DNA of 63,973 nt, counting the filler, from a bacterium (lineage in GTDB: Bacteria > UBA9089 > CG2-30-40-21 > SBAY01), in the NCBI GenBank assembly GCA_040757115.1. It is 7 parts of 7 records of this genome, joined end to end, with 100 filler letters (N's around TTAATTAATTAA, not from the genome) between each part and the next. Parts side by side here need not be neighbours in the genome. Positions count along the whole stretch, not along the records: positions 19,305 to 28,578 come from JBFLYA010000148.1; 6 more parts are not named here. The stretch is one strand, 5' to 3'. Shown here piece by piece: positions 9,559 through 56,173 of the stretch (position 1 is its first letter; each line of letters begins with the position of its first letter). The notes beneath the pieces were generated by a model. The model ran no database searches. It worked only from the letters and a program-made list of their open reading frames with translations, and was not told the origin of the DNA. The translations under genes were made by a program, and so were the position numbers.

Positions 9559-9658
9559 NNNNNNNNNNNNNNNNNNNNNNNNNNNNNNNNNNNNNNNNNN
9601 NNTTAATTAATTAANNNNNNNNNNNNNNNNNNNNNNNNNNNNNNNNNNNNNNNNNNNN
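9559..9658. other. Assembly linker; also at 19205-19304, 28579-28678, 37760-37859, 46930-47029 and 56074-56173
   Basis: 100-nt N runs with central TTAATTAATTAA (stops in all six frames). Confidence 0.97.
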
Positions 9659-17658: not shown

Positions 17659-17940
17659 GTAATGTGAGGGAGATATTCCCTGCAAAATGTCTTCAACACA
17701 ACAACCCGGAGCACCTGCCAGAAATGCTGGGATGTTTTTTTCAGTGTTTCTGGTCAAGTCCAGCGATTTGTAACCGTTCAGGTAATCCTTTACCGCAGAG
17801 ACGCAGAGTTTAATGCAAATATCAAAATGTAAAAATCAAAAGGACAAAGCAAAATGCAAAAATAGTTGTAAGGCAACAAAAAAAATCAAATATTAAATAT
17901 TAAAAATCAAAAATAAGAATAAAAGAATTCCTTAATTTTG

Positions 17941-19204: not shown

Positions 19205-19304
19205 NNNNNNNNNNNNNNNNNNNNNNNNNNNNNNNNNNNNNNNNNNNNTTAATTAATTAANNNNNNNNNNNNNNNNNNNNNNNNNNNNNNNNNNNNNNNN
19301 NNNN

Positions 19305-19407
19305 TTTCTTTAGCTGGTTCCCCACCCATAGCTTGTAACACTGTACCTCCCCCAATCACCATACTTAAAACCACTAAAAACCCTAATACTTTTTTTACTT
19401 TAAACAT
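19305..19407 (-). CDS. 5' part of a secreted protein, cut by the contig edge
   Basis: AGGAGGTG RBS; MFKVKKVLGFLVVLSMVIGGGTVLQAMGGEPAKE. Confidence 0.65.
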
Positions 19408-19515
19408 CTTTCAAACACCTCCTAAAATTTTTAACTTTGTTTTTTTAACTATACTACATTTTTTAACATTTGTCAAATTCAATTTCTCATTTTTCCCCTC
19501 ATTCCTTATTTACAT

Positions 19516-21321
19516 TTACACCTTTATCTGATGAATCAAATTATCATCTGGTATTAATTCATCACCTGAGGTAACTACAAATGAGGTACTTGCTTGACTA
19601 TCTGCAGGTAATTCTAAGGTAGATGCAGGATATTGGGTGATAGAAAGGCATTTTGATGCCCTAATCAGTTTCATCTCAATATTAGCCGTAAAAGACTTAT
19701 TCTTTGCCTTGTTAGTGATAGTGATGTAATGAGTATGTGATTCATGTGGCTCTGTAAAATTCTCCCAGGCAGGATGGATAGATACAAAGATAGGTGGCAC
19801 AATCTCAAAACTCCAGCGATAAGGAGATTGTTTCAAATCATGCCCTGGCTCATTAGCATTATCCTTTGCCTCAATTGAGCAAGAATACTCACCATAATCT
19901 AAGTTATTCACTGCTGATGCTTGATGAAAGGTTCCTTGAGGAGTATTCAATACAATAGTTGAATTATCAATCCCGGAGGCATAGCTGTTAACTGGTGGGT
20001 CAAAAAGCGTAGCAGAGATATTGACTGTCCAGGGTGTCTCCTCAGCAATAATCACCTCACCATTTGCTGGGGTGGTGGCAGTTACCTCCGGCTCCTCGGT
20101 GTCAATTAAAAAGGAATGGTAGCCTGATATTGGTACTTCAATAGTTTCAATAATATCTTCCTTACAATCAGCACTGGCTATCTTTACCTGCATTTGTGTT
20201 TTCTCCTCAAAATAAAGCCTTGCGCTGCCGTCAGTCCCTTTGGGAATATTCAAGATTACAGAGAAGTTCTTACCCGAGCCGGCTAAAGATATTGGATGTG
20301 GAGAAGAAAAAGCACCGTTACCTTTAATAAATAGTGTTGGTGCTGAAGGTAAAGATTCGGATAAGGTAATAGAGATAGATATTGCCCCTTCTCTGACAGG
20401 AGATTCCCTTGAGATAGTAATTTGTGCTGTGATAGGAGATTTAGAAAACAGCTCTTCTAATATTTGTCTTTTAACCTTAACACTTTTGTATAAGTCAACA
20501 TGATGTGTTGACAGGGCACCAATATCCTCAAGCCTTTTAACTGTCTTTCTCTGCTGATGTAGAAGTCTACCTTTAGCAGAGAGATAAGAAACCACACCAT
20601 CTCCACCCTCAAACAATGGTGGGCCAATCCTATCCTCAGCTAAATTAATATAAGTAATCGTTGGTGGGTCTGAATTTAATTTATTCTGCCAGAAATACTC
20701 CATAAAGGCACTACCTTTTTCCTGCAATTGCTCAGTTCCAACTAAGTTAGGGTCAGGTTTGTTATACTTCTTAGCAATATCTGATTTCCATTTTGAAGAA
20801 ACTGGTAAATTTCGGAAGAAGTCAGATATACCACTACCCATCTGCGGTGTCCCCATCATAATAATTTGATTTATGTCATTGCCGTAGCGGGGGATGTTGG
20901 AGATGGTTATCTTTTTGGGTTCTTTTTCACCAGCAGGAGTATATTCATAATCCATTGTAGGCTGATGTTGATTCCCATACATCATAGTATAAAGCTCAGC
21001 TACAATACCACCTCTTGAATGAGCAACAATATCAAGTTTAGTTGCTCCTGTTCGTCTCTTAACTTCATCTATTGCTTGTTTAAGCTTTTTAACATCCTCT
21101 TGTATCAATCCTTGTCCTCTGTTAGGAAAATCACCAAACAAATCAGCTAAGGTAAACACATCAAATCCTGCATTTTGCAATGTCTTCACCATGCATCCAT
21201 CTTTAAAACTCTGTGAATCACCATTGAGTCCATGAACTATCAATACAGGATTTTTAGCAAAAGCAGGACTTAACAAAAATAAAGTGCCTACCAGACCTAA
21301 AATAATGGTTCTTTTAAACAT
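19516..21321 (-). CDS. Secreted alpha/beta-hydrolase (lipase-like) plus Ig-like domains, copy A, C-terminally truncated
   Basis: Signal peptide; PVLIVHG, AHSRGG nucleophile elbow, GDGVV and His; paralog of 22444-24894. Confidence 0.85.
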   Translation of the reverse strand: MFKRTIILGLVGTLFLLSPAFAKNPVLIVHGLNGDSQSFKDGCMVKTLQNAGFDVFTLADLFGDFPNRGQGLIQEDVKKLKQAIDEVKRRTGATKLDIVAHSRGGIVAELYTMMYGNQHQPTMDYEYTPAGEKEPKKITISNIPRYGNDINQIIMMGTPQMGSGISDFFRNLPVSSKWKSDIAKKYNKPDPNLVGTEQLQEKGSAFMEYFWQNKLNSDPPTITYINLAEDRIGPPLFEGGDGVVSYLSAKGRLLHQQRKTVKRLEDIGALSTHHVDLYKSVKVKRQILEELFSKSPITAQITISRESPVREGAISISITLSESLPSAPTLFIKGNGAFSSPHPISLAGSGKNFSVILNIPKGTDGSARLYFEEKTQMQVKIASADCKEDIIETIEVPISGYHSFLIDTEEPEVTATTPANGEVIIAEETPWTVNISATLFDPPVNSYASGIDNSTIVLNTPQGTFHQASAVNNLDYGEYSCSIEAKDNANEPGHDLKQSPYRWSFEIVPPIFVSIHPAWENFTEPHESHTHYITITNKAKNKSFTANIEMKLIRASKCLSITQYPASTLELPADSQASTSFVVTSGDELIPDDNLIHQIKV

Positions 21322-21356
21322 AATTTACTCACCTTCAAAAGATTAAAAATTTAAGA

Positions 21357-22250
21357 CTAAAACTCAAACTCACTATCTGGAATACCAGTATTTAATTGAA
21401 TATTGCTAAGAGTAATTTCTTCTGTTGCTCTTGCTGTTTTAACAAACTTTGTTGGAATCCAAGTATCATTGATAAGTACAAAATTACTGAATTCTCTGGT
21501 TGAACTTACATTACCACTTTTAATTCCAATTGCTATAATTTTTGTAAATACCCCTTTATTAAAATCCATTGTGAATTCGTATCTTAACCATCCTGGTACA
21601 GGATAGTTATACTCATCCTCAGGATTACTTGCTTTCGGCACTGCCTCAATCACCCAGGTATCAGGTTGAGGATTATCAATCACCTTCGTATCAAACTTAG
21701 TCATTATCTCATCCAACCGCCAGTAGAAATCAAGTCTATCTGGGTCTAACATTAAATACCAAGGAAGTTTGTATATCCAATCTTCACCATCTACTTTCCT
21801 ATAATGGGTCTGATTTTTTATAATGGTAGGACTTTCTGGTTCATCATTAAGAATATACTTAAGTTTATCTGGTGGTTTAAATAAAAACTTTAGATTAGCT
21901 ATATGGGTATCTTTAAATAATGGATACCCCCATCCTCCTTCCTTTTTTGTCACACTATACATATCTGCCTTCAGGTCTTGTATCTTCTGGTAATTCGCCT
22001 TGACCTTATCCAGTAATGCCTGGACAGTAGGCGTGCCGATTTGTTTTGGTCTAAGTGGTAGATTTTTCTTTTTTACCACCTTTTCCTGCTTCGTCTTTTG
22101 CTCATTAGCCTTTAGCCATGGCCACTGCCATTCTATACCCTGGGCTATAGTGCTACTGCATAGCAAGATACACATCACCCCAATGCAACACATTATCTTT
22201 TTAATCCTTGTTCCTCTTGAATTTCCCTTTAAACCTTTTAAATTACACAT
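21357..22250 (-). CDS. LolA-like (lipoprotein-sorting fold) exported protein, copy A
   Basis: LLDKVKANYQKIQDLKA, FKPPDKLK and SNIQLNTGIPDSEFEF LolA-like signatures. Confidence 0.75.
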   Translation of the reverse strand: MCNLKGLKGNSRGTRIKKIMCCIGVMCILLCSSTIAQGIEWQWPWLKANEQKTKQEKVVKKKNLPLRPKQIGTPTVQALLDKVKANYQKIQDLKADMYSVTKKEGGWGYPLFKDTHIANLKFLFKPPDKLKYILNDEPESPTIIKNQTHYRKVDGEDWIYKLPWYLMLDPDRLDFYWRLDEIMTKFDTKVIDNPQPDTWVIEAVPKASNPEDEYNYPVPGWLRYEFTMDFNKGVFTKIIAIGIKSGNVSSTREFSNFVLINDTWIPTKFVKTARATEEITLSNIQLNTGIPDSEFEF

Positions 22251-22443
22251 TGTTTTTTACCTCCATATTTTTGATAATTGGTTAAATGGTAACTGGTTAA
22301 ATAGTCACCCTTTACCAGGTTTCTTTAATTATAACACATTTTTTGTCTTTTATCAAGGTTTAATTTTTCATTTTTTCTTTTTGTACACTGATTGCACGGA
22401 TTACACTGATTTTTTTTATTTTTATACTCCGTGAGAATCTGTG

Positions 22444-24894
22444 CTATCCGTGAAATCCGTGTACTTTAGATTCCAAACAGGTTAATATCCCGGGCAAAAA
22501 CTCAAATTCATAGCCATATTTCTGTGTAAAACAAACTACCACACCACCTTCCTCAACATATCTCCGTAACCTCCATTCCAATATTTCAGAAGTATCTACA
22601 CCACTTAATCCATAGCTCGGAATAATTAGCACCTTGAAGTCGGATAACTTGCGAGGGATGAGGGACGAGGGATGAGGGATGAAGGACGAAAGAGGAGGGA
22701 CGAGGGATGAAAGAGGAAGTGACTTTTGGAGTTCAGACTTTAGCCTTTCATTCGCAGCATTGGGCATTTGGATTTGATTTGATATTTGGAATTTGGATTT
22801 TGGAATTTGTTTGTAATTTGGAATTTGTGATTTGGAATTTTCCTCAATGGAGGATGGTAACGGTTCAAGGTCACGATCGATAAACCAGACAGGCTCTTTA
22901 AACCGTCCTAAAAGATGTGCTACTCCATCCACAAATCCATTCAAATACACCCCAACCTCTGCCTCAGAATCTATCTTTGCCGGTGTTGGGTATCTTGGGT
23001 CTGAAATATCATAGGATTCATCCGGATGGTCAGTGACTATGTTCTGGCCATTGGCATACTGAATGGCAGATAATTTTAAGCCACGGACAGTTATTATTAT
23101 CTGATGAATCAAATTATCATCCGGTATTAATTCATCACCTGAGGTAACTACAAATGAGGTACTTGCTTGACTATCTGCTGGTAATTCTAAGGTAGAAGCA
23201 GGATATTGGGTGATAGAAAGGCATTTTGATGCCCTAATCAGTTTCATCTCAATATTAGCCGTAAAAGACTTATTCTTTGCCTTGTTAGTGATAGTGATGT
23301 AATGAGTATGGGATTCATGTGGGTCTGTAAAATTCTCCCAGGCGGGATGGATAGATACAAAGATAGGTGGGGCAATCTCAAAACTCCAGCGATAAGGAGA
23401 TTGTTTCAAATCATGCCCTGGCTCATTAGCATTATCCTTTGCCTCAATTGAGCAAGAATACTCACCATAATCTAAGTTATTCACTGCTGATGCTTGATGA
23501 AAGGTTCCTTGAGGAGTATTCAATACAATAGTTGAATTATCAATCCCGGAGGCATAGCCATTCACTGGTGGGTCAAAAAGAGTAGCAGAGATATTGACCG
23601 TCCAGGGTGTCTCCTCAGCAATAATCACCTCACCATTTGCTGGCGTAGTAGCAGTAACCTCCGGTTCCTCGGTGTCAACCAGGAAATTATACTCACCACT
23701 AATTGGGGCTTGAATAATATCTTGAACTTCCTGACAATTTTCATCGGCTATTGTTACCGGAATTGATGTTGTCTCGTTAATATAAAGTTTGGCATTACCA
23801 TCGTCGCCTTTGGAAATAAAGCATTTACCAGAGAAGTTTTTCCCGGAACCAGATAAAGCAATCTCTGGTAGTGGCACTGGGACAAATCCTCCCTTTTGGT
23901 AAATGAGTGTTGGTGGACATGGTAAGGTCTCAGAAGTAGTTACATAAACATTTATTGCCCCTTCTCTGACAGGAGATTTCCTTGAAATAGAGATGTTAGC
24001 TACAATAGGAGACTTAGAAAACAGCTCTTCTAATATTTGTCTTTTAACCTTAACATTTTTGTATAAGTCAACATGATGCGTTGCCAGGGCACCCATATCC
24101 TCAAGCCTTTTAACTGTTTTTCTTTGCTGATGTAGTGGGACACCTTTAGCTGAATCAAAAAAAATTACACCATCACCCGGTTTAAACGATGGAGGACCAA
24201 TCCTATCCTCAGCTAAATTAATATAAGTAATCGTTGGTAGGTCTGAATTTAATTTATTCTTCCAGAATAACTCCTCCATAAAATTACTACCTTCAGTCCG
24301 CTGCTGCTCTATTGCTACAGAATACGGGTCAGGACATTTACCTTTCTTATGGATTTCATTAACTATCTCTGGATTTTTATATGAAAAATCAGCCCACTCA
24401 CTTCCCATCTGCCCTGTCCCCAGCATAATGATTTGATTGACATCATTGCCGTAGCGGGGGATGTTGGTGATGGTCTTATTTTTTTTAAATTTTTCTTTTT
24501 TGGGTTTTCCAGCAGGATAATACGAATAATCCATCGTAGATTGATATTGATCACCAGACATCATAGTATAAAGTTCAGCTACAATACCACCTCTTGAATG
24601 TGCAACTATATCTACCTTATCTGCACCAGTAAAATTTTTAATCTCATCTATCTTTTGTTTTAGCGCCTTTACATCTTCTTGTATTAATCCCTGGCCTTTA
24701 TCATCAAAATCAATAGTAAATATCTCTTTTCCCTCATACCCAGCATTCATCAAGGTAGTTATTAAACAACCTTCTTTCCACATTTTTGAATCCGCAAAAG
24801 TTCCATGAACTAAAAGCACAGGATTCTTCGCCACGGCAGGACTTAACCAGAATAGACTACCTACCAAACCTAAGGCTATAACTCTTTTAATCAT
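22444..24894 (-). CDS. Secreted lipase-like plus Ig-like plus partial class-I GAT-like protein, copy B, truncated
   Basis: AHSRGG motif; about 580 bp near-identical to copy A; the end runs into 9-mer repeats. Confidence 0.85.
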   Translation of the reverse strand: MIKRVIALGLVGSLFWLSPAVAKNPVLLVHGTFADSKMWKEGCLITTLMNAGYEGKEIFTIDFDDKGQGLIQEDVKALKQKIDEIKNFTGADKVDIVAHSRGGIVAELYTMMSGDQYQSTMDYSYYPAGKPKKEKFKKNKTITNIPRYGNDVNQIIMLGTGQMGSEWADFSYKNPEIVNEIHKKGKCPDPYSVAIEQQRTEGSNFMEELFWKNKLNSDLPTITYINLAEDRIGPPSFKPGDGVIFFDSAKGVPLHQQRKTVKRLEDMGALATHHVDLYKNVKVKRQILEELFSKSPIVANISISRKSPVREGAINVYVTTSETLPCPPTLIYQKGGFVPVPLPEIALSGSGKNFSGKCFISKGDDGNAKLYINETTSIPVTIADENCQEVQDIIQAPISGEYNFLVDTEEPEVTATTPANGEVIIAEETPWTVNISATLFDPPVNGYASGIDNSTIVLNTPQGTFHQASAVNNLDYGEYSCSIEAKDNANEPGHDLKQSPYRWSFEIAPPIFVSIHPAWENFTDPHESHTHYITITNKAKNKSFTANIEMKLIRASKCLSITQYPASTLELPADSQASTSFVVTSGDELIPDDNLIHQIIITVRGLKLSAIQYANGQNIVTDHPDESYDISDPRYPTPAKIDSEAEVGVYLNGFVDGVAHLLGRFKEPVWFIDRDLEPLPSSIEENSKSQIPNYKQIPKSKFQISNQIQMPNAANERLKSELQKSLPLSSLVPPLSSFIPHPSSLIPRKLSDFKVLIIPSYGLSGVDTSEILEWRLRRYVEEGGVVVCFTQKYGYEFEFLPGILTCLESKVHGFHG

Positions 24895-24939
24895 AATCCA
24901 CTCACCTCCTAAAAACTCTAAATTCTATACTCTAAACCC

Positions 24940-25869
24940 TTACTTGAACTCAAATTCACTATCTGGAATACCAGTATTTAGTTGAATATTACTAAGCGTA
25001 ATTTCTTCAGTTCCCTCTCCTATTTTAATTAATGTGGTGGGTATCCAAATATTATTGATTAGTTGAATATTTTTATATTCGGATGCTAAATCTTTATCTC
25101 CTCCAGTTTTTGCATCAAAATCAAAAATTTTTGTAATTACTCCTTTTCCATAATCAATATAAATTTCTAATCCCCACCTTGGTGAAAATGGATAATTGTA
25201 CTCATCCTCAGGATTACTAGCTTTCGGCACTGCCTCAATCACCCAGGTATCAGGTTGAGGATTATCAATCACCTTCGTATCAAACTTAGTAATTATCTCA
25301 TCCAACCGAAAGTAAAATTCAAATAACCTTTGTGGGTCTAATAAAGTATACCATGGTAGTTTATAACTTCCAACAGAAGACTCTTCAGTAATTGGTGCTC
25401 CCCATTCTCCTATACTTTTACTGTATTTAGTACTATCTTTTACAATTACCGTGAGAACATTTTCGGGTGGTATCCATTTAAGTTTACCAGGTGCTTTAAA
25501 GAAAAACTTTTCATCCTGTGTAATTAAATCACCTACTATGCCTAACCACTTAGCAAATTCAGAATCCCATGTTTTGAAATTCCAATTTGCCTTCAAATCT
25601 TGAATCTTCTGGTAATTCTCCTTGACCTTATCCAGTAATGCCTGGACAGTCGGCGTGCCGATTTGTTTTGGTCTAAGTGGTAGATTTTTGTTTTTAACCA
25701 CCTGTTCCTGCTTAATCTTTTGCTCCTTAGCTTTTAGCCATGGCCACTGCCATTCTATACCCTGGGCTATAGTGCTACTGCCCAGCAAAACACACATCAC
25801 CCCAATGCTACACATTATCTTCTTAATCCTTGTTCCTCTTGAATTTTCCTTTAAACTTCTTTTACCCAT
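24940..25869 (-). CDS. LolA-like exported protein, copy B
   Basis: Shares near-identical blocks with copy A and diverges between them. Confidence 0.75.
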   Translation of the reverse strand: MGKRSLKENSRGTRIKKIMCSIGVMCVLLGSSTIAQGIEWQWPWLKAKEQKIKQEQVVKNKNLPLRPKQIGTPTVQALLDKVKENYQKIQDLKANWNFKTWDSEFAKWLGIVGDLITQDEKFFFKAPGKLKWIPPENVLTVIVKDSTKYSKSIGEWGAPITEESSVGSYKLPWYTLLDPQRLFEFYFRLDEIITKFDTKVIDNPQPDTWVIEAVPKASNPEDEYNYPFSPRWGLEIYIDYGKGVITKIFDFDAKTGGDKDLASEYKNIQLINNIWIPTTLIKIGEGTEEITLSNIQLNTGIPDSEFEFK

Positions 25870-26039
25870 TTTAAATCTACCTCCTCATTAGTTTAATTTT
25901 TTAGTAATCGGATTAGACGGATATACTGGATTTTTTATCTGCTTAATCCGCTAAATCCGATTACTAAAATAGGATTAGGGTCAGGCAGTTCCCTTTACAT
26001 TCCACATTTACGGTTTGACCCCAAGAGGAACTAATCCTC

Positions 26040-27635
26040 TCAAGGCATCCAGTTAATTAATTTACCATCTTTCTTTGGCTTAAATATCAACTTTTTATTT
26101 TTACCATTGGAATCCATTACCCATATCCTGTGTTGTGTTCCAAATAGCCAATGCATCTCTTTCCAAAATGCAATTTTCGAACTATCAGGAGACCAGACAT
26201 ATAGCTGTTTTAAAATATTAGAAGAGTAAACATCCCCCTTTTCTGTAAGAGACTTTTGATTTTTACCATCACTATCCATTATCCATATATCGTTATTATT
26301 TTTAAAAATAATTTTATTTCCATCAGGAGACCAAATCGGTTTTGAGCCTATCGTTGACAACTGAATTTCTTTCTCGGTCATAATATCTACTTTCCATATT
26401 CCATTGCTGACATAAACAATTTTTTTACTATCAGGTGCCCACGCAGGTAATTCTTTATTAGCCCATATAGTATGTGAAGTTAGTTGTTTTCTATTCGTTC
26501 CATCTACATTTATAACTCCTAATGTATAAAGAGTAGGATAATCTTTAAGTGTTAAAAAAACAACCTTTTGCCCATCTGGTGAGAAGATGGGATATTCCTC
26601 ACTAATTTCATCTGTATTACTTAACCATTTTAGTTCATTAGTAAGCAAATTTATTAAACAGATATCAGAATTATCCTGGCAATTTATCATCCCATCATTA
26701 TTTGTATCTTTTCTTTTAGAAGAAAAGACGAGTAAAATTTCATCATTACTCCATGCAGGATCTTCAGCATAATGAGAAGATACTACCCTTTTATTGTTAC
26801 CATCAAACTCCATTATCCATAATCGTAAATCAACAGAAAGATTTGCAAAACAACCTGTTCTTTCTAATTCTTTTTCTTTAAAAGTTATGAAAGATACATA
26901 TTTCCCTGTAGGAGAGAACTTAAAACCGAATTCGTAACCATAAGAAAAAGATGGAGCGGTTGATAAAAGTTTGGGTGTTTTCTTGTAATGAGTTAGCATG
27001 TATAATTTTTTATCCACTGAAAAAACAAGATTTCCAAAAGGGAGTTTTCTCTGTAATTCAAACAAATGGGGTTTATCAAGCAAATCCCATTCAAAATAGA
27101 GTAAACTTCCTCCTCCAGTAACTAATGCAAGGGCAAAAATTATCCACATCCCTAATTTTACTACTCGCTCATTTAGCCATTTAACTATATTTCTACTTTG
27201 GATAATACCCCATATTAGTCCACAAAATGCTGAAATTGGAGTAATGAACAAAATTAGGAATACATAACCTATTCCTGCCAGCCCTTCAGGTTTTCCAAAA
27301 GTCATGTTACCTATTAAAATTGCTACCAATATGCCAACTATCCCAAAGAGACCTATCCATCCAATAAGAACCCCTAAACATATTATTGGTGCTATTAGTG
27401 CTACCCACTTACTTTTTAATTCTTCCTTAATATTTTCTCCCTTCCATATAAAATATATCCAGCTAAAGATTGCCATCCCTATAGAAAATATTACTATCGT
27501 TGCTAAAATTACATTCACTACTTTATTTTGGAAAGGGATATCCTTTAAAAATGAGGATAGAAATATAGGATAAAGACATATTTCAATAATTATCCCTACT
27601 ATTCCTCCGCATAAGATAAAATGTAAAAACTTCAT
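26040..27635 (-). CDS. Membrane protein with a C-terminal TolB-like (PD40) beta-propeller
   Basis: About 5 TM helices followed by FSPDG, WAPDS and WSPDG repeats. Confidence 0.85.
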   Translation of the reverse strand: MKFLHFILCGGIVGIIIEICLYPIFLSSFLKDIPFQNKVVNVILATIVIFSIGMAIFSWIYFIWKGENIKEELKSKWVALIAPIICLGVLIGWIGLFGIVGILVAILIGNMTFGKPEGLAGIGYVFLILFITPISAFCGLIWGIIQSRNIVKWLNERVVKLGMWIIFALALVTGGGSLLYFEWDLLDKPHLFELQRKLPFGNLVFSVDKKLYMLTHYKKTPKLLSTAPSFSYGYEFGFKFSPTGKYVSFITFKEKELERTGCFANLSVDLRLWIMEFDGNNKRVVSSHYAEDPAWSNDEILLVFSSKRKDTNNDGMINCQDNSDICLINLLTNELKWLSNTDEISEEYPIFSPDGQKVVFLTLKDYPTLYTLGVINVDGTNRKQLTSHTIWANKELPAWAPDSKKIVYVSNGIWKVDIMTEKEIQLSTIGSKPIWSPDGNKIIFKNNNDIWIMDSDGKNQKSLTEKGDVYSSNILKQLYVWSPDSSKIAFWKEMHWLFGTQHRIWVMDSNGKNKKLIFKPKKDGKLINWMP

Positions 27636-27679
27636 ATTTTTAACCTTCCTTGATTAAAACTTCATATTGGAAAATTTAA

Positions 27680-27985
27680 TTACAAAACTTCTCTTTTTAT
27701 CTCTGCCGTTAGGTCTTGTATCTTCTGGTAATTCTCCTTGACTTTATCCAGCAATGCCTGAACAGTCGGTGTGCCGATTTGTTTTGGTCTAAGTGGTAGA
27801 TTTTTCTTTTTAACCACTTTTTCTTGCTTAGTCTTTTGCTCCTTAGCTTTTAGCCATGGCCACTGCCATTCTATACCCTGGGCTATAGTGCTACTGCCCA
27901 GCAAGACACACATCACCCCAATGCCACACATTATCTTCTTAATCCTTGTTCCTCTTGAATTTTTCTTTAAACTTCTTTTACCCAT
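27680..27985 (-). pseudogene. LolA-like copy C, truncated just after the conserved N-terminal block
   Basis: Near-identical to copies A and B up to QKIQDL, then stops 9 codons later. Confidence 0.8.
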
Positions 27986-28015
27986 TTTAAATCTACCTCC
28001 TCATTAGTTTAATTT

Positions 28016-28226
28016 GTAACCGTTCAGGTAATCCTTTACCGCAGAGACGCAGAGGAACAGAGAAGACATAGAAATAAAGTAACTATTCAGCCACTGATTA
28101 ACACGGATTAGCACGGATAAAAAAATAAAATCAGTGTTTCATCTGTGTCCATCTGTGACTGAATAGTTACCAATAAATTTTAATTTTTTCTCTGCGTCTC
28201 TGTGGCATCTTGCGGTGAACAGTTAC
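28016..28226 (+). mobile_element. Composite GTAAC-TIR MITE with an inner GTAACTATTCAG...CTGAATAGTTAC unit, TSD TTTAATTT
   Basis: TSD at 28008-28015 and 28227-28234; the empty paralogous site is at ~25892-25899. Confidence 0.92.
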
Positions 28227-28679
28227 TTTAATTTTTTAGTAATCGGATTGAGCGGATTAATCGGATTTCTTTTCTGTTTTTTATCTGCTCAATCCGCTAA
28301 ATCCGCTTACTAATAATATACCCTAAAAATTTCAATCTGTCAATACCTCAAATTTCTTATTTTCCCTATTTTCCCTATTTTCCCCTTTTTCCTTATTTAC
28401 ACCATCTCCTTCTTTGTAACCGTTCAGGGCTATACATTAGAAGTGTAAACAAGGAGAAACGCTCATGAGTCTGCGACTCACAAAGTCTTATGGTGAAATG
28501 TCAAGTAAAAAATTAAGTTTTTTTAAAAATATTTTTCTTGACTTATATCCCTAAAAAGGCACAAAAATAGTATGTTCGNNNNNNNNNNNNNNNNNNNNNN
28601 NNNNNNNNNNNNNNNNNNNNNNTTAATTAATTAANNNNNNNNNNNNNNNNNNNNNNNNNNNNNNNNNNNNNNNNNNNNC

Positions 28680-29647
28680 AAAGGAGGTGTAAGCGCTATT
28701 AGAGAAGCAAAGACTAACATAACTTACTCTTCTACTACATTTATCCAAACCGATGCCGCTGTTAATCCAGGAAATAGCGGTGGTCCACTCTACCTTCTTG
28801 AGACAAGTGAGGTGATGGGAATAGCTGTGGCTAAACTTCAAGAATCAGAGGGATTAAACCTTGCCATTCCCATAAATATTGCCAAAAGGCTCATTCAAAA
28901 TGCCAAAATAACCATAAAAAGCAATCCCGCTACACCTGTCCCTTTTGCCAAACCAGAGCCAGAAAAACCTTCTACTGTTTTAACTGCCCTTGACTATTTA
29001 CTCCGTGGCAATTCCTGGTATGACAAAAATCTCTATAACCAGGCAATCTCTGATTACAACCGGGCATTAGAGATAAACCCAAGGCTTGCTGAGGCATACT
29101 GCGGTCGGGGGCTGCCTATGGTAATAAAGGTCTCTATGACCAGGAAATCTCTGATTACAACAAGGCATTAGAGATAAACCCAAGGGATGCTGAGGCATAC
29201 TACAATCGGGGGATTGCCTATGGTAATAAAGGTCTCTATGACCAGGCAATCTCTGATTACAACAAGGCAAGTGAGATAAATCCAGGGTTTGCTGAGGCTT
29301 ACATCAATCGGGGGGTTGCCTATGCCGAGAAAGGCGATTATGACCATGCAATCTCTGATTACAACAAGGCATTGGAGATAAACCCAAGGGTTGCTATGGC
29401 TTACTACAATCGGGGGAGTGCCTATGCCGAGAAAGGCGATTATGACCATGTAATCTCTGATTTCACCAAGGCATTAGAGATAAACCCAAGGCTTGCTGAT
29501 GCATACAACAATCGGGGGATTGCTTATTACTTCAAGAGAGAATATGACAAAGCCTGGGAGGATGTCCATAAGGCACAAAGTTTAGGCTATCAAGTTCACC
29601 TAGAATTTCTCAAGGACCTTCGTAAAGCCTCAGGAAGACAAAGATAA
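28680..29647 (+). pseudogene. Trypsin-like serine protease (5' part missing) plus TPR array, with a 1-nt frameshift near 29111
   Basis: KGGVSAIR...IQTDAAVNPGNSGGPL; 102-bp TPR units; the first unit reads CGGGGG-CT where the others read CGGGGG-NNT. Confidence 0.85.
29046..29550 (+). repeat. Five 102-bp tandem TPR-coding repeats
   Basis: ATCTCTGATT...GAGATAAA(C/T)CCA units at 101-102-bp spacing. Confidence 0.92.
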
Positions 29648-29858
29648 CTAAAGAGCCAGAGCAAAGGCTCAGGGAGCTGGAATGACAAGCACGCCAAGAA
29701 CGCAAAGAGAAATAAGGGAAAAAATTACCTTTGCGTCCTTTGCGTGAAAAAACTATTTTCAGTCCACGAATTTTCCGTGTTTCATCTGTGTTCATCTGTG
29801 GCTGAATAGTTATGATTACAATTTATCACCCATTATTATATCCAAAGGAGTAAAATTA

Positions 29859-32531
29859 ATGATTGAATTAACTATTGATGGAAAAACAACTCAAGTAAAA
29901 GAAGGAACAACTATTCTTCAGGCGGCTAAGTCTGCCGGGATTAAAATCCCGCATTTGTGCTATCATAAAAGCCTTTCGCCTTCAAGTAGTTGTCGAATAT
30001 GTGTTGTCGAAGTTGAAGGTGCAAAGACATTGGTCGCTTCCTGCTCTTATCCGGTCAGTGATGGGATGAAGGTTAAAACTGACACCGAGCGGGTGCTAAA
30101 TGCCCGTAAATTAGTGCTCGACCTTCTTTTATCCAACCATCCACAGGATTGCTTGAGCTGTGAGAAAAATAGTATCTGTAAACTCCAGAAATATGCCTAT
30201 GAGTTAGGCATAAGCCGCACTACCTTTGAAGGAGCAAAAACTCAATATCCGATTGATACCTCTAACCCATTCATTGAGCGAGATTATAATAAATGTATTC
30301 TTTGTGGTCGATGTGTTAGTGTTTGTGCTGAAATTCAAATGCTTGGTATCCCTGATTTTGCCAATCGTGGCTTTGAAACTAAAATATCTACCTTTTATGA
30401 TAGCCCATTACAAGAAACAGAATGTGCCTTTTGTGGTCAATGTGTAGCCGTATGCCCAACCGGGGCATTAACAGAAAAAGTGCGTAAGTTCAGAGGAAGG
30501 GAGTGGGAATTGAAGAAGGTAACTACGACCTGCCCATACTGCGGTTGTGGCTGCACCTTTGATTTGAATGTTAAAGATAACGAAGTCGTAAAGGTTACTT
30601 CCAATGATAAAAATCCGGTTAATGGTTTGGCTCTTTGTGTTAAAGGGAGGTTTGGGTTTGACTTTATCAATAATCCGGATAGATTAAAAACACCTTTAAT
30701 TAAACAAGAATCAGGTGAATTTCGCCCTGCCAGTTGGGATGAGGCGTTAAAATTGGTAGCCAATAAATTTAGCCAGATAAAGACGCAATATGGAGCCGAT
30801 AGTATCGCGGGCATAAGTTCAGCCAGATGCACCAATGAAGAAAATTATCTGTTCCAGAAGTTTATGCGAGTAGTGATTGGCACGAACAATGTTGACCATT
30901 GTGCCCGACTTTGCCATGCTTCGACTGTGGCGGGATTGGCGGTATCCTTTGGTTCAGGGGCAATGACTAACTCTATCGCAGAGATTGAGAATGCAGATTG
31001 CATTCTGGTAACAGGCTCAAATACTACCGAATGCCATCCCATAATCGGTTTGAAGATAAAGCAGGCGGTTAAAAAAGGAGCCAAACTAATTGTGGCTGAC
31101 CCAAGACGGATAGAGTTGGTTGAATTGGCTGATGTCCATTTGCAATTCAGGAGTGGCACGGATGTCGCCTGGCTTAATGGGATGATGAATGTGATTATCA
31201 ACGAAGGTTTGTTGGATGAAAAATTTATAGAAGAGCGATGTGAAGGGTTTGATGAGTTTAAGAAAATTGTTATGGAATACACCCCTGAAAAGACAGAGGA
31301 AATAACCGGTGTTCCCGCGGATGAAATAATTAAAGCCGCCAGAATTTATGCTACCGCAGATAAAGCCAGCATTATCTATTCAATGGGGATAACACAACAT
31401 ACTACCGGGACAGATAATGTCTTTTCCATTGCCAATCTGGCTATGCTCACGGGTAATGTCGGTCGGGAAAGCACAGGCGTTAATCCTTTGCGAGGACAAA
31501 ATAATGTGCAAGGTGCCTGCGATATGGGTGCTTTACCTGTGGTTTTCTCCGGGTATCAAAAGGTAGTTGACCCGCAGGCAAGAATGAAGTTTGAACAAGC
31601 CTGGGAAGTTAAATTACCAGAACAACCAGGACTAACGGTAGTCGAAATGCTTAATGAGGCGGGTAAGAAAATCAAAGCAATGTATATTATGGGCGAAAAT
31701 CCAATGGTTTCAGACCCGGATTTAACCCATGTGGAAGAATCACTCAAAAAATTGGATTTCTTGATAGTTCAAGATATCTTCCTGACCGAAACCGCTAAAT
31801 TAGCGGATGTGGTTCTACCCGCCGCCTCTTTTGCCGAAAAAGATGGCACCTTTACCAATACCGAGCGGCGGGTGCAGTTAATCCGTAAAGCCATTGAACC
31901 AATCGGACAGAGCAGACCTGATTGTTCGATAGTTGAATTAGCCAATAAAATGGGTTATCAGATGAAATATGATTCTGCCGCCGCAATTATGGAAGAAATA
32001 GCCAGGTTAACTCCTTCTTACGGAGGCATTTCTCATCAGCGATTGGCAAAAGAAGGTGGAATTCAATGGCCCTGTCCTGATGCCGCTCATCCAGGCACAA
32101 AATTCTTGCATAAAGATAAATTTGTTAGTGGAAAAGGTAAATTTCAAGCAGTAAAATACTTACCCCCAGTAGAAGAGCCAGATGAAGAATACCCATTTTG
32201 GCTGACTACTGGAAGGATACTTTATCACTACCACACCGGCTCAATGAGCCGCAGGTCAAAAGGACTAAATGAAATTTGCAAAGAAGGGTATGTTGAGATT
32301 AATCCTCAAGATGCTATTTCTTTAGGGATAAGTGATGGTCAGACTGTAACTGTTTCGTCAAGACGAGGTTCGATTGAAATAAAGGCAAAGGTAACTGATA
32401 AAATAGCCCAGGGAACATTTTTTATCCCATTTCATTTTGCCGAATCTGCGGCAAATGTCCTCACCAACTCTGCATTAGACCCAATAGCAAAGATACCAGA
32501 GTTAAAGGTTTGTGCAGTAAAAATAAGGTAA
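29859..32531 (+). CDS. fdhF: Formate dehydrogenase alpha subunit (Cys-type)
   Basis: N-terminal Fe-S domains; CPYCGCGC, DHCARLCHAS, PLRGQNNVQG. Confidence 0.93.
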   Translation: MIELTIDGKTTQVKEGTTILQAAKSAGIKIPHLCYHKSLSPSSSCRICVVEVEGAKTLVASCSYPVSDGMKVKTDTERVLNARKLVLDLLLSNHPQDCLSCEKNSICKLQKYAYELGISRTTFEGAKTQYPIDTSNPFIERDYNKCILCGRCVSVCAEIQMLGIPDFANRGFETKISTFYDSPLQETECAFCGQCVAVCPTGALTEKVRKFRGREWELKKVTTTCPYCGCGCTFDLNVKDNEVVKVTSNDKNPVNGLALCVKGRFGFDFINNPDRLKTPLIKQESGEFRPASWDEALKLVANKFSQIKTQYGADSIAGISSARCTNEENYLFQKFMRVVIGTNNVDHCARLCHASTVAGLAVSFGSGAMTNSIAEIENADCILVTGSNTTECHPIIGLKIKQAVKKGAKLIVADPRRIELVELADVHLQFRSGTDVAWLNGMMNVIINEGLLDEKFIEERCEGFDEFKKIVMEYTPEKTEEITGVPADEIIKAARIYATADKASIIYSMGITQHTTGTDNVFSIANLAMLTGNVGRESTGVNPLRGQNNVQGACDMGALPVVFSGYQKVVDPQARMKFEQAWEVKLPEQPGLTVVEMLNEAGKKIKAMYIMGENPMVSDPDLTHVEESLKKLDFLIVQDIFLTETAKLADVVLPAASFAEKDGTFTNTERRVQLIRKAIEPIGQSRPDCSIVELANKMGYQMKYDSAAAIMEEIARLTPSYGGISHQRLAKEGGIQWPCPDAAHPGTKFLHKDKFVSGKGKFQAVKYLPPVEEPDEEYPFWLTTGRILYHYHTGSMSRRSKGLNEICKEGYVEINPQDAISLGISDGQTVTVSSRRGSIEIKAKVTDKIAQGTFFIPFHFAESAANVLTNSALDPIAKIPELKVCAVKIR

Positions 32532-32563
32532 TTATTCAGCTTGTTTAAAGGAGGTGTTTTAGA

Positions 32564-33205
32564 ATGAAGTTTTTTATTGATACCGCCAATATCGACGAGA
32601 TACGCAAGGCGGCTTCCTGGGGGATTGTAGATGGTGTCACGACAAATCCCTCATTGATTGCCAAAGAAGGAAGGGACTTTAGAGAAACAATCCTTGAAAT
32701 TGCCCATATTGTTGATGGACCGATAAGTGCAGAAGTGATTAGTGAAAATGCTGAAGGGATGATTTCAGAGGCAGAACAAATAGCCTTATGGCATCCCAAT
32801 ATTGTTATCAAAATTCCAATGACTCCTGAAGGAATGAAGGCTACAAAAATATTAAAGATGAAGGCAATCAAGACTAATGTAACTTTAGTATTTTCAGCTA
32901 ATCAAGCATTAATTGCCGCCAAAGCAGGAGCAACTTTCGTCAGTCCTTTTGTTGGCAGATTAGACGATGTTGGCCAGGATGGAATGGAACTTATTGGTGA
33001 TATTGTGGATATTTATGATATGTATGGATTTACGACTGAGGTAATTGTTGCCAGCGTCAGACATCCCATTCATGTGGTTATGGCGGCTAAATTAGGGGCT
33101 CATATTGCCACCATACCATTCAAGGTATTAGAACAACTATTTAAACATCCTCTTACCGATATTGGCATCGACCGATTCTTAAGTGATTGGAAAAAGATGG
33201 GATAA
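32564..33205 (+). CDS. fsa: Transaldolase / fructose-6-phosphate aldolase
   Basis: [28 protein letters not shown]. Confidence 0.93.
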
Positions 33206-33321
33206 TCATTTGCAATAGGATAGTATTTAACCACAGAGGCACAGAGACGCTGAGAAGAAATAGAAAAATATGGGAAGTGTCCCCATATTTCCCCTGATAA
33301 ATTGTAATGACAACATCAAGT

Positions 33322-37759: not shown

Positions 37760-37859
37760 NNNNNNNNNNNNNNNNNNNNNNNNNNNNNNNNNNNNNNNNN
37801 NNNTTAATTAATTAANNNNNNNNNNNNNNNNNNNNNNNNNNNNNNNNNNNNNNNNNNNN

Positions 37860-46619: not shown

Positions 46620-47131
46620 GAAAGGGCAAGCAAAAAGGATAATCAAAATGGAACCAAAAGACTATAAGAACAGAAGTTACCTTTCAGCAATAGAAGCAGC
46701 TAAATTTTTATGGAGGAGTGGGAGCAAACCTTGAATATTGAATTTAGAATACCCACAACGGTAGATAACAGCAGGCTAAAAACTTCTTGATAATATTGAT
46801 AATGAGCTTTCTCAACAAATGGATAGGTAAGGTTGATAACAATTATATTAGGAGAGAGCGAAAGGTAGTTTGGGAAGAAAAAAATTCTTTGACAACCCAG
46901 AAGGGAGATTTTTTGGGGTTAAAAGGGCGNNNNNNNNNNNNNNNNNNNNNNNNNNNNNNNNNNNNNNNNNNNNTTAATTAATTAANNNNNNNNNNNNNNN
47001 NNNNNNNNNNNNNNNNNNNNNNNNNNNNNTATAAAAACATCAAGAAACTCTAAGGAAATAACTATAGAAATACAATAATAAAAAATTAATTTTAATCCTG
47101 TTCATCTGCGAAAATCTGCGTCCCATTTTAC

Positions 47132-56073: not shown

Positions 56074-56173
56074 NNNNNNNNNNNNNNNNNNNNNNNNNNN
56101 NNNNNNNNNNNNNNNNNTTAATTAATTAANNNNNNNNNNNNNNNNNNNNNNNNNNNNNNNNNNNNNNNNNNNN

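Follow-up and report, generated by a model that had tools for sequence, protein, structure and literature searches.

The locus considered here lies within a 63,973-base stretch of DNA (the window), which joins seven contigs of a Desantisbacterota-like groundwater metagenome-assembled genome (MAG), and it consists of tandem pairs in which a gene for a LolA-fold protein stands directly upstream of a gene for a secreted lipase. The reading I favour, at somewhat better than even confidence, is that these pairs belong to a recombining, lineage-specific multigene family in which a LolA-fold helper accompanies a giant surface protein headed by the lipase. I show that the family is built on a two-gene module, that the 5' part of this module has undergone lineage-specific amplification, that copies have been truncated at repeats, that anchor blocks have been homogenised and that other blocks have been exchanged in patchwork fashion. 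An earlier note on the same DNA had described a LolA gene followed by a lipase gene with an AHSRGG motif, occurring twice, plus a third LolA stub; the open reading frames (ORFs) are indeed as described, the motif being present in both lipases, and the two complete units are called W1 (LolA1 and lipase1) and W2 (LolA2 and lipase2) in what follows. The nearest genome, G001, which has 30% of 31-mers in common with the window, was used for copy number and for the search for full-length forms; C numbers denote its contigs.

Along the two units, near-identical blocks alternate with strongly diverged ones, as had been claimed, and the divergence is far from uniform. The global alignment is 77.9% identical over 2,724 ungapped columns and the sliding-window identity swings between 90-100% and 35-65%; the mismatch variance per 60-nt window is 105, versus 10.1 +/- 2.2 after shuffling, a value reached in 0 of 5000 permutations, and the longest identical run measures 186 nt against a permuted maximum of 61. 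In a self-BLAST, positions 23097-25365 match 19524-21773 (78.3% over 2294 nt), the 5' block of the LolA genes matches itself at 27714-28015 and 25598-25899 (95.7% over 302 nt), and 25585-25864 matches 21963-22240 (92.1% over 280 nt). The blockwise pattern persists in both genes when third codon positions alone are considered, and the near-identical blocks are identical at third codon positions too, which argues for gene conversion. Of the four blocks that the earlier note called near-identical, three are so as DNA, namely the N-terminal block of LolA, the 580-bp lipase block and KFDTKVI...YNYP, in which 71 nt (25290-25220) match perfectly; the C-terminal block TEEITLSNIQLNTGIPDSEFEF is conserved as protein only, the proportions of nonsynonymous (pN) and synonymous (pS) differences being 0 and 0.42. 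Likewise, the segment that had been called the lipase C-terminal region is near-identical as stated, but it corresponds to an early stalk segment, approximately aa 400-600 of a protein of more than 3,295 aa.

That the conserved blocks are recombination tracts, as had been surmised, is borne out by two lines of evidence. Between lipase1 and lipase2, synonymous divergence (dS) is 0.14 in the constant stalk block (codon columns 475-680) versus 1.97 in the first half of the head, so that the blocks are young at the DNA level and not just constrained as protein. Moreover, W1 and W2 share 96.9% identity in the constant block and only 84-89% with any G001 copy, while the W2 head is 92.5% identical to that of C363 and 72% identical to that of W1. 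The constant block thus groups by genome and the heads group across genomes: heads track orthology while the adjacent stalk block is homogenised within the genome, which is the signature of gene conversion, and the block at 23097-23678 is a gene-conversion tract. Along the same line, the LolA 5' block is 85-98% identical among eight 'A-type' copies (window and G001), and the ordinary signal-peptide region found in the LolA genes of C3, Y24, Y300 and CG2 bears no relation to it (52-60%).

A map of the blocks sharing at least 90% identity yields a patchwork across copies and MAGs, in both genes. A case in point is the LolA gene of C305, whose first half corresponds to that of C297 and whose second half corresponds to that of Y24, from another MAG; similarly, lipase1 has its immunoglobulin (Ig) block in common with C305 and its first head block in common with Y300. 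Divergence within the module (70-92% identity) contrasts with 98% identity in flanking housekeeping DNA, the latter measured between the window and G001 over 3.9 kb comprising a formate-dehydrogenase-like gene (29859-32531) and the DNA downstream of it. The ratio of nonsynonymous to synonymous divergence (dN/dS) is below 1 everywhere (0.06-0.97), with 0.08-0.5 in the lipase heads and 0.3-0.97 in the variable blocks of LolA, which, as placed on a structural model, would cover entire barrel strands and not loops alone. Homologous recombination therefore keeps the anchor blocks near-identical within the genome, the variable blocks are exchanged among paralogues and strains, and many variants of head and partner result.

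The earlier note had pointed to a possible protein continuing beyond GYEFEFLPG, the motif near which lipase2 stops, and such proteins exist in relatives. In G001:C3 the gene for a 296-aa LolA protein precedes a long ORF, which runs off the contig after at least 3,295 aa; this ORF starts with a signal peptide and a lipase (Lipase_2 at 19.6 bits, just below the 20.3 cut-off), and contains MG2, CARDB and A2M_BRD domains, approximately 18 propeller-type repeats (PorZ-like, sub-threshold) and a weak Por_Secre_tail. Three other lipase genes continue past the same motif, in C305 (at least 957 aa), L026 (2,149 aa) and L091 (at least 2,842 aa), and the geometry is that of a variable N-terminal enzyme head on a conserved stalk, as had been proposed. 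G001 holds 16 matches to lipase2 and seven strong matches to LolA2, each LolA gene standing directly upstream of a lipase gene; three of the seven LolA and lipase modules so formed are truncated. In 'bacterium Yes70-31' (L026), LolA and the 2,149-aa lipase-headed protein are followed by a 1,102-aa protein with a putative Por_Secre_tail, and Ca. Desantisbacteria CG2_30_40_21 also encodes a LolA and lipase pair. In a CG2-like species from JGI metagenomes, the pair is single-copy, the giant measures at least 2,842 aa and the module sits between murE and murF; the gene order at L088 6281-14391 and L091 701-10445 is rsmH-like, a 163-aa gene, murE-like, LolA, giant and murF-like (names given from inspection of N-terminal sequences), and in L089, of the same species, the signal-peptide block and the 3' end of LolA have both been replaced. 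The LolA family is very small, with 18 proteins among 5.77 billion, and strong matches occur in three of the 24 genomes of the phylum (seven, two and one copies); the amplification is thus specific to the genus of G001 and the window.

Lipase genes ending early make up five of the nine evaluable copies in the window and G001: W2 (816 aa) ends inside a GATase-like domain, W1 (601 aa) and C198 (597 aa) end at the same point after ...NLIHQ, C297 (717 aa) ends in a linker and C513 (246 aa) ends inside the head. The two lipases of the window do end at different points, as had been noticed, namely GYEFEFLPG plus 14 residues for lipase2 and ...NLIHQIKV for lipase1. Homology of lipase2 to the giant gene (92.6% to C3) ends at 22488, next to a dispersed palindromic repeat with 11 matches in G001, some of them on both strands. 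The end point of W1 and the downstream HEAT-repeat gene are also found in G001:C198, the DNA being 81% identical across the junction, and the head of the ~600-aa form in C198 is very different in sequence from the W1 head, which implies that the truncated architecture persisted while the heads turned over. W1 and C198 were also considered as one orthologous locus with a replaced head; this was rejected, for the flanks are ~81-83% identical versus 98% in housekeeping DNA and orthology is not established. Another copy in G001 (C594; L006 80-1672) lacks the signal peptide and the first ~46 residues, has an unrelated short N-terminus and carries GAGG instead of the GDG Asp motif; it is a 5'-truncated and, judging from its sequence, possibly inactive member of the family.

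Lipase2 and lipase1 match Pfam Lipase_2 (PF01674, cut-off 20.3) at 42.1 and 27.3 bits, the match covering only aa 23-108 of the head; a phmmer search against PDB returns Bacillus-type lipases (E 5e-8, aa 23-110 only), and other Pfam matches of the head include DUF915, Abhydrolase_1, PGAP1 and similar families. As for the catalytic Ser-Asp-His triad, whose positions are set by alignment only, all 12 aligned sequences keep the S-R-G-G that contains the nucleophile Ser, nine of the 11 rows covering the GDGV position have its Asp, and one His is at least 90% conserved. The AlphaFold2 model of lipase2 is confident over aa 23-440, with an alpha/beta-hydrolase head (aa 23-295) followed by a beta-sandwich, and Foldseek ranks lipases as the best matches of the head (Streptomyces 5h6g, B. 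subtilis LipA 1i6w, BlEst2 and a Proteus lipase), with template modelling (TM) scores to target of 0.70-0.76. The head is accordingly described as a predicted lipase of Bacillus type (class 2, or family I.4-type). The model of LolA2 has a mean predicted local distance difference test (pLDDT) score of 77, exceeding 85 for most of aa 70-309; Foldseek matches it with probability 1.0 to LolA of P. aeruginosa, LolB, DUF1329 (4z48), NE2245 (3buu) and P. gingivalis LolA3 (9tp6), the last three at TM scores to target of 0.59-0.66 and 12-15% sequence identity. LolA2 is thus modelled with a LolA fold, an incomplete beta-barrel with a helical plug. At the level of sequence, Pfam LolA_like (PF17131) scores LolA2 at 16 bits against a cut-off of 30, three of the 18 family members have a precomputed match, and Pfam gives no match for LolA1 or the stub. 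Sub-threshold NCBIfam scores are 22.5 for lipase2 (PhaZ7, cut-off 450) and 19.7 for LolA2 (LolA1_Flavo, cut-off 100).

The LolA gene always stands beside a lipase head, a context that argues for a role other than LolCDE/LolB lipoprotein sorting. A lipase gene comes after each of the 12 full-length LolA-family genes seen, whereas none of the six non-lipase giants with a visible upstream gene is preceded by LolA, which makes the partner head-specific. The upstream neighbours of non-lipase giants are secreted HEAT-repeat proteins (amidase and unknown heads), BamB-like propellers (M23 heads) or unknowns; a BLASTP search with the HEAT protein of C198 against the neighbours of other giants gave weak matches only, and it was Pfam that revealed the HEAT partners. 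The heads themselves are interchangeable in kind: the giant of G001:C198 has the same constant region (62% identity over 234 aa) behind an Amidase_6/NlpC-P60 head, P0020 and P0024 carry Peptidase_M23 at aa 62-163 together with a putative Por_Secre_tail, and M23 heads occur in three of ten further giants sampled from the phylum. Lipase, M23 and amidase heads hint at an attack on foreign cell envelopes. Upstream of several giants belonging to another subtype (N-terminus ...KDGCGP...) there are RHS-repeat proteins (L066 2682-6836 on the minus strand, L071 158-1117, L076 3-962 and L074 6019-8133), and an RHS-type ORF of 704 aa (G018:C143) matches the GATase-like domain of the giants; a link between Rhs proteins and this domain is possible on that similarity.

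A sister family in the same phylum bears on the function of the partner. G008:C37 encodes a 707-aa secreted protein with an N-terminal alpha/beta hydrolase of PGAP1/palmitoyl-thioesterase type and a C-terminal LolA_like domain, the LolA part being 28% identical to LolA2 and having the same ...NTG.(T/P)DSEFE. ending; two of nine matches, P0038 (707 aa) and P0039 (1,104 aa), are hydrolase and LolA_like fusions of this kind. The fusion-family genes occur in tandem arrays with PD40-propeller genes, truncated lipases included (292 aa in G001:C145). To judge by their domain make-up, the fusions suggest that LolA-fold domains work with lipases rather than against them, so that a helper domain would fit better than an antidote.

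Taken together, these observations can be arranged into the following mechanism. The basic module is a two-gene operon encoding a secreted LolA-fold protein and then a giant surface protein (~2,100 to more than 3,295 aa), the latter with an N-terminal class 2 Ser-Asp-His lipase, an Ig-like stalk, a GATase-like domain, MG2/CARDB/A2M and propeller repeats, and a putative tail of the type IX secretion system (T9SS) type. Within this genus, amplification has affected the 5' part, which runs from the promoter region and LolA through the lipase head to the first stalk domains; the window holds two tandem copies cut in the stalk, one at aa 816 beside the palindromic repeat and one at aa 601 beside the HEAT gene, and a third reduced to 94 LolA codons. 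RecA-type recombination may use the perfect tracts of 56-186 nt. The LolA partner, specific to the lipase head, may handle acyl chains or lipids with the lipase, either handing over substrate or product or shielding the cell's own membrane, and is probably not a cognate antidote. Truncated modules would be by-products of tandem duplication, donors and possibly tail-less periplasmic enzymes, and full-length proteins would hold the lipase at the tip of the stalk, where it would attack or harvest the lipids of other cells or particles.

Several points weigh against this proposal. The kin amount to 10-12 modules from four MAG lineages, which are few and not independent. In the CG2-like species, a CAG>TAG change lies in the lipase head in three of five assemblies (L087, L089 and L091, not L088 and L025); it falls at alignment column 256, the invariant Gln of the GQG(F/L)IQEDVK motif, and is a common nonsense allele, which makes the giant gene dispensable in that species. 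The truncated copies, having no tail, may be inert. Identity to the fused family is no more than 27-33% in the LolA part, and that family may have a different role. Finally, secreted upstream partners specific to each head type are also predicted by a model in which the partner confers immunity.

That model, which the earlier note had proposed, is the strongest of the rivals; I regard it as unlikely, although the head repertoire keeps a relaxed form of it alive. It holds that the locus is an inverted polymorphic effector/immunity system, in which the lipase is an antibacterial toxin carried by the giant, LolA is the periplasmic immunity protein, and the truncated modules serve as a stock of silent or orphan cassettes, each able to supplant the head of an expression-site gene by recombining through the anchors. 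The full-length gene exists (G001:C3), the heads of the giants (lipase, Peptidase_M23, Amidase_6/NlpC-P60) are classic antibacterial activities, each head type has its own kind of secreted partner, and the divergence of the modules lies far above the genome background, with recombination tracts containing perfect runs of up to 186 nt. Furthermore, Zhang et al. 2012 (PMC3482391) list HEAT-repeat immunity proteins (Imm-HEAT) as well as lipase-like toxins for polymorphic toxin systems.

Cognate toxins and antidotes would be expected to vary together, and the earlier note had indeed called LolA a 'co-varying' partner. The modules do not bear this out. In Mantel tests on 10 modules, the variable block of LolA nearest the lipase gene (VR2) does not correlate with the lipase head (r = -0.22 and 0.08); the other block (VR1) gives r = 0.31 (p = 0.075) and, for the second part of the head, 0.39 (p = 0.033), a correlation carried by two near-identical pairs. 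Single comparisons agree: W2 and C363 have nearly the same head (nonsynonymous divergence, dN, 0.06) and different VR2 blocks (dN 0.45, dS 0.89), C305 and Y24 share VR2 (1% distance) and have heads that are 51-57% different, and W1 and Y300 share the first head block (11%) and have LolA blocks that are 63-66% different. LolA and lipase variable blocks thus assort independently. Other facts run against immunity as well: dN/dS remains below 1 throughout, the supposed cassettes have their own start codon, signal peptide and partner gene and are hence not silent, the sole LolA gene seen without a lipase is the truncated stub (arrays of LolA alone, as orphan immunity genes would form, were not seen), the module is single-copy between murE and murF in the related species, and a lipase-like hydrolase and a LolA-like domain are fused in one secreted polypeptide in the sister family. 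A complex prediction of the lipase2 head (aa 22-330) with LolA2 (aa 68-309), run with alignments as input and with controls absent, gave ipSAE values of 0.00 and 0.01 and is evidence neither way. What survives of the earlier interpretation is the full-length form, the geometry, the recombination tracts and the existence of other envelope-hydrolase heads; co-variation, immunity and the analogy with Tle/Tli pairs of type VI secretion (T6SS), discussed below, lack support.

A second rival, which seems decidedly unlikely, regards the locus as neutral debris: decaying partial tandem duplications at dispersed repeats, a mosaic produced by passive gene conversion, and truncated copies devoid of function. 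It draws on the fact that more than 2,400 aa of stalk, as well as the tail, are missing from the two lipases of the window, that the truncation of lipase2 abuts a dispersed repeat, that one copy is a 94-codon stub and that more than half of the evaluable copies are truncated, as well as on the nonsense allele of the relative and on dN/dS values of 0.5-0.97 in LolA variable blocks. Against decay stand the truncated ORFs themselves, which are open over 601 and 816 codons, with an intact catalytic motif and the low dN/dS of their heads, and the ~600-aa form of G001, with the same end point and downstream gene despite its very different head.

The last rival, an assembly artefact in which reads of several paralogues or strains were mis-joined across near-identical blocks to give a chimeric tandem order, is very improbable: the MAG is fragmented (as are G001 family members, on 1-5 kb contigs), the blocks (300-580 nt) are longer than short reads and Logan contigs contain full-depth joints between the two units (20733>24400, 21423>25026 and 23207>19715), but Logan, which uses a different assembler, bridges four gene junctions with 0 differences each (from the reads of run X1, which are possibly not independent), the blocks are broken by mismatches, and truncated modules of the same kinds occur in the separate genome G001.

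If the favoured reading holds, concerted evolution and block shuffling act on an enzyme head and its partner gene together, in a candidate phylum without a cultured member. It joins three things that are unconnected in the literature searched, namely LolA-fold companions of lipases (as neighbours and as fusions), giants with interchangeable heads, and tandem 5' amplification as a source of variants, and it would open a way to study the attack on, or scavenging of, foreign cell envelopes by uncultured bacteria in groundwater. For the function of non-canonical LolA paralogues, the LolA-lipase fusions represent a simple biochemical entry. A bolder extension, which I put forward tentatively and consider doubtful, is that giant T9SS-tailed stalk proteins of Desantisbacterota-like bacteria may be contact weapons or harvesting tools, each with an exchangeable N-terminal envelope hydrolase (class-2 lipase, M23 or NlpC/P60-type amidase) and its own upstream secreted 'guardian' (LolA, HEAT or beta-propellers); recombination in the 5' module and stalk would diversify both, tail-less copies such as those of the window would form a donor reservoir, and the whole would be the mirror image of C-terminal polymorphic toxins.

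The features of the locus are listed in Table 1.

Table 1. Genes, blocks, repeats and assembly bridges of the LolA and lipase locus (positions along the window)
Feature	Position	Strand	Remarks
LolA-family 5' stub	27985-27680	-	101 aa
Membrane protein with C-terminal PD40/TolB-like beta-propeller	27635-26040	-	531 aa; hydrophobic N-terminal ~200 aa
LolA2, secreted or anchored LolA-fold protein (modelled)	25869-24940	-	309 aa
Lipase2	24894-22444	-	816 aa
LolA1, LolA-family	22250-21357	-	297 aa; 63% identical to LolA2
Lipase1	21321-19516	-	601 aa; architecture of lipase2, truncated in stalk
Secreted HEAT-repeat protein	19407-19305	-	first 34 codons; gene cut by contig end
Constant-stalk block, lipase2	23097-23678	-	matches 19524-20105; perfect runs of 186 and 113 nt
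Constant-stalk block, lipase1	19524-20105	-	partner of 23097-23678
Homogenised LolA 5' block (ribosome-binding site and first ~94 codons)	25585-25899	-	other copies at 27699-28015 and 21961-22240
Dispersed palindromic repeat	22359-22473	.	abuts lipase2 truncation point; begins ~15 nt past 22488
High-copy dispersed repeats	28011-28345	.	upstream of LolA stub
Logan bridge, lipase2 end to LolA1 start	22137-22657		0 differences
Logan bridge, upstream of LolA2 through PD40 gene into stub	25896-27749		0 differences
Logan bridge, LolA1 to lipase1	20636-21660		0 differences
Logan bridge, LolA2 to lipase2	24571-25249		0 differences

All genes of the locus are on the minus strand, in the order LolA stub, transmembrane PD40 gene, LolA2, lipase2, LolA1, lipase1 and the start of the HEAT gene. 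The stub is 93.6% identical to LolA2 over its first 94 aa, after which come seven unrelated codons and a stop. G001 offers no DNA match to the PD40 gene, which shows weak similarity to the PD40 genes that adjoin the lipase-LolA fusion genes of relatives. Lipase2 comprises a signal peptide, the predicted class-2 lipase head (~aa 23-295), a beta-sandwich and Big_5-like stalk, a linker of low complexity and the opening ~60 aa of the GATase-like domain; the linker (22638-22822) contains low-complexity 14-nt-periodic repeats encoding PLSSLVPPLSSFIPHPSSLIP-like sequence, and the Logan depth of 4,644 in the bin 22715-23024 implies that this motif is widespread in the sample. From LolA stop to lipase start there are 45 nt in the LolA2/lipase2 pair and 35 nt in the LolA1/lipase1 pair. 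The HEAT N-terminus of the window is identical at 25 of 30 positions to a 392-aa HEAT protein of G001:C198, where the gene stands before that of the Amidase_6-headed giant. The rest of the window holds no further member of the LolA or lipase family, and a tblastn search of the whole window with the giant protein found no stalk or tail sequence beyond the two truncated copies.

Each module has a partner gene and its own ribosome-binding site, start codon and signal peptide. Both the stub and LolA1 have promoter-like sites upstream that score 11/12, which is weak evidence, as the totals of the promoter and terminator scan are no higher than in shuffled sequences (39 versus 34.5 +/- 5.4 and 4 versus 6.8 +/- 2.4); what is suggestive is only where the three 11/12 sites are placed. 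All three copies of the LolA 5' block are overlain by antisense ORFs of 78-144 aa (22000-22434, 25622-25891 and 27771-28007, plus strand). These ORFs were rejected as real genes, for variable sites per codon position in the LolA frame (14/14/29) favour that frame, and they are probably by-products of a conserved DNA block.

As to the assembly, the seven contigs measure 7.8-9.6 kb each (ordered from the longest, 9,558 bp, to the shortest, 7,800 bp) and are separated by N44-TTAATTAATTAA-N44 linkers at 9559-9658, 19205-19304, 28579-28678, 37760-37859, 46930-47029 and 56074-56173, so that genes on either side of a linker are not adjacent in the genome. The LolA and lipase locus is confined to one contig (19305-28578, 9,274 bp, 36% G+C), and position 19305 is the first base of that contig after a linker, not a biological boundary. 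X1, a groundwater metagenome DNA run holding 0.84 of sampled words, is the only public run that holds the locus, with no RNA run listed; it is possibly the source sample. The end of lipase1 has Logan coverage from a variant contig only. The additional full-depth joints between the units are most simply explained as further mosaic paralogues, and mis-joining across the 300-580-nt blocks is a residual risk.

The repeats upstream of the stub (28011-28345) look like repetitive extragenic palindromes or miniature inverted-repeat transposable elements (REP/MITE-like). A 2.7-kb query containing them has 94 matches in G001, most within that stretch, and the Logan word depth of the bin is 82,544 versus ~300 for unique sequence; a 43-nt stretch of the repeat is identical at 17766-17808 on another contig, and the repeat is also found at 29774-29825. 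Elements of this type flank many family members and contig ends, and probably cause the assembly breaks around family members. The contig that follows in the window contains a 102-nt tandem repeat (29004-29616; four to five copies, 63-84% identical) inside a TPR-repeat gene. Its segment 33506-37396 is 98% identical to G001:C26, and 28679-33320 has only short dispersed repeats matching G001, the first 4.6 kb being either strain-specific or unassembled in G001.

Among known systems, one close architecture is that of T9SS cargo, the hydrolases of Bacteroidota that combine an N-terminal catalytic domain, Ig-like spacers and a type A C-terminal sorting domain. Full-length relatives share the signal peptide, the N-terminal hydrolase, the Ig/CARDB/MG2 stalk and a Por_Secre_tail-like C-terminus; here, however, the host is a Desantisbacterota-like MAG and the window copies have no tail at all. 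To our knowledge, a dedicated LolA-fold partner gene and tandem 5' amplification are no feature of T9SS cargo. The presence of a T9SS tail and translocon is weakly supported: for the sorting domains (TIGR04183/PF18962), P0001 scores 16.2 against a cut-off of 23, the second ORF of L026 scores 25.2 against 27, P0024 scores 24.5 against 27 and P0020 scores 29.5, above its cut-off of 27, and a SprA-like ORF (TIGR04189) of ~2,000 aa is found in three of three relatives at 100-132 bits, below the 200-bit cut-off.

Gene-conversion systems for surface variation, such as pilE/pilS and vlsE, offer a second parallel, in that several partial copies have conserved blocks in common with a complete gene for a surface protein and undergo gene conversion. 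The donors of pilS and vls have no promoter and no start codon and serve one expression site, whereas the copies considered here are 5' ends that possess start codons, promoter-like sites and a partner gene, and are therefore probably expressed rather than silent. Gene conversion among copies is established by the data above; replacement of the head in a full-length gene is not among the exchanges observed.

Lipase-helper pairs are a third point of reference. As in LipA-Lif of Pseudomonas and Burkholderia, a secreted lipase is encoded beside a specific membrane-anchored or periplasmic partner, and LipA-Lif structures 2es4 and 9g8u appear at Foldseek ranks 50 and 43 for the lipase2 head. Lif is not known to have a LolA fold and its gene follows that of the lipase; here the helper fold is different and the pairing with the lipase is predicted from gene order. 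The T6SS Tle/Tli pairs invoked by the earlier note likewise place a lipase beside a gene for a periplasmic protein, but the lipase of the present family belongs to a Sec-dependent giant and matches Lipase_2 and Bacillus LipA-type enzymes. VipB/TssC (PF05943) was found in none of three relatives (G001, 100% complete; G011, 88%; G002, 93%), an E. coli control being matched, and no Tle-named chain occurs among the PDB sequence matches or the top-50 Foldseek ranks shown, which hold lipases of Bacillus, Streptomyces, Proteus and Pseudomonas type instead.

LolA paralogues outside lipoprotein sorting (DUF1329, NE2245 and LolA3) share the fold. P. gingivalis LolA3 is reported to have 'a separate function' from the LolA-LolB pair (PMC13103446), and DUF1302/DUF1329 genes of Pseudomonas putida are described as having fitness phenotypes on fatty esters (10.1101/2020.07.04.188060). 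The family of the window differs from those paralogues in being tiny, always beside a lipase head and itself mosaic. Neither LolA-lipase modules nor these giants are described anywhere in the literature searched, and in a preprint on giant genes and predation (10.1101/2023.11.21.568195) the terms lipase, M23 and Desantis each occur 0 times.

Polymorphic toxins with orphan cassettes (Rhs, CdiA, MafB) resemble the family in their conserved trafficking or stalk part, variable enzymatic tips and small adjacent partner gene. Both also have extra copies that are partial and recombine through conserved sequence, and both include lipase-like and peptidoglycan-hydrolase activities (predicted, in the present case). 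They are defined by the diversity of their C-terminal toxins in the main text of Zhang et al. (PMC3482391), where the words 'LolA' and 'M23' occur 0 times, the supplementary domain tables being a place where N-terminal or LolA-linked cases might be listed. In those systems the toxin is C-terminal and the immunity gene directly downstream; here the variable enzyme is N-terminal, the partner is upstream, the partial copies have their own starts and signal peptides, and toxin-partner co-variation is absent. To sum up, the system resembles T9SS cargo, polymorphic toxins, lipase-helper pairs and gene-conversion families, and is a member of none of them.

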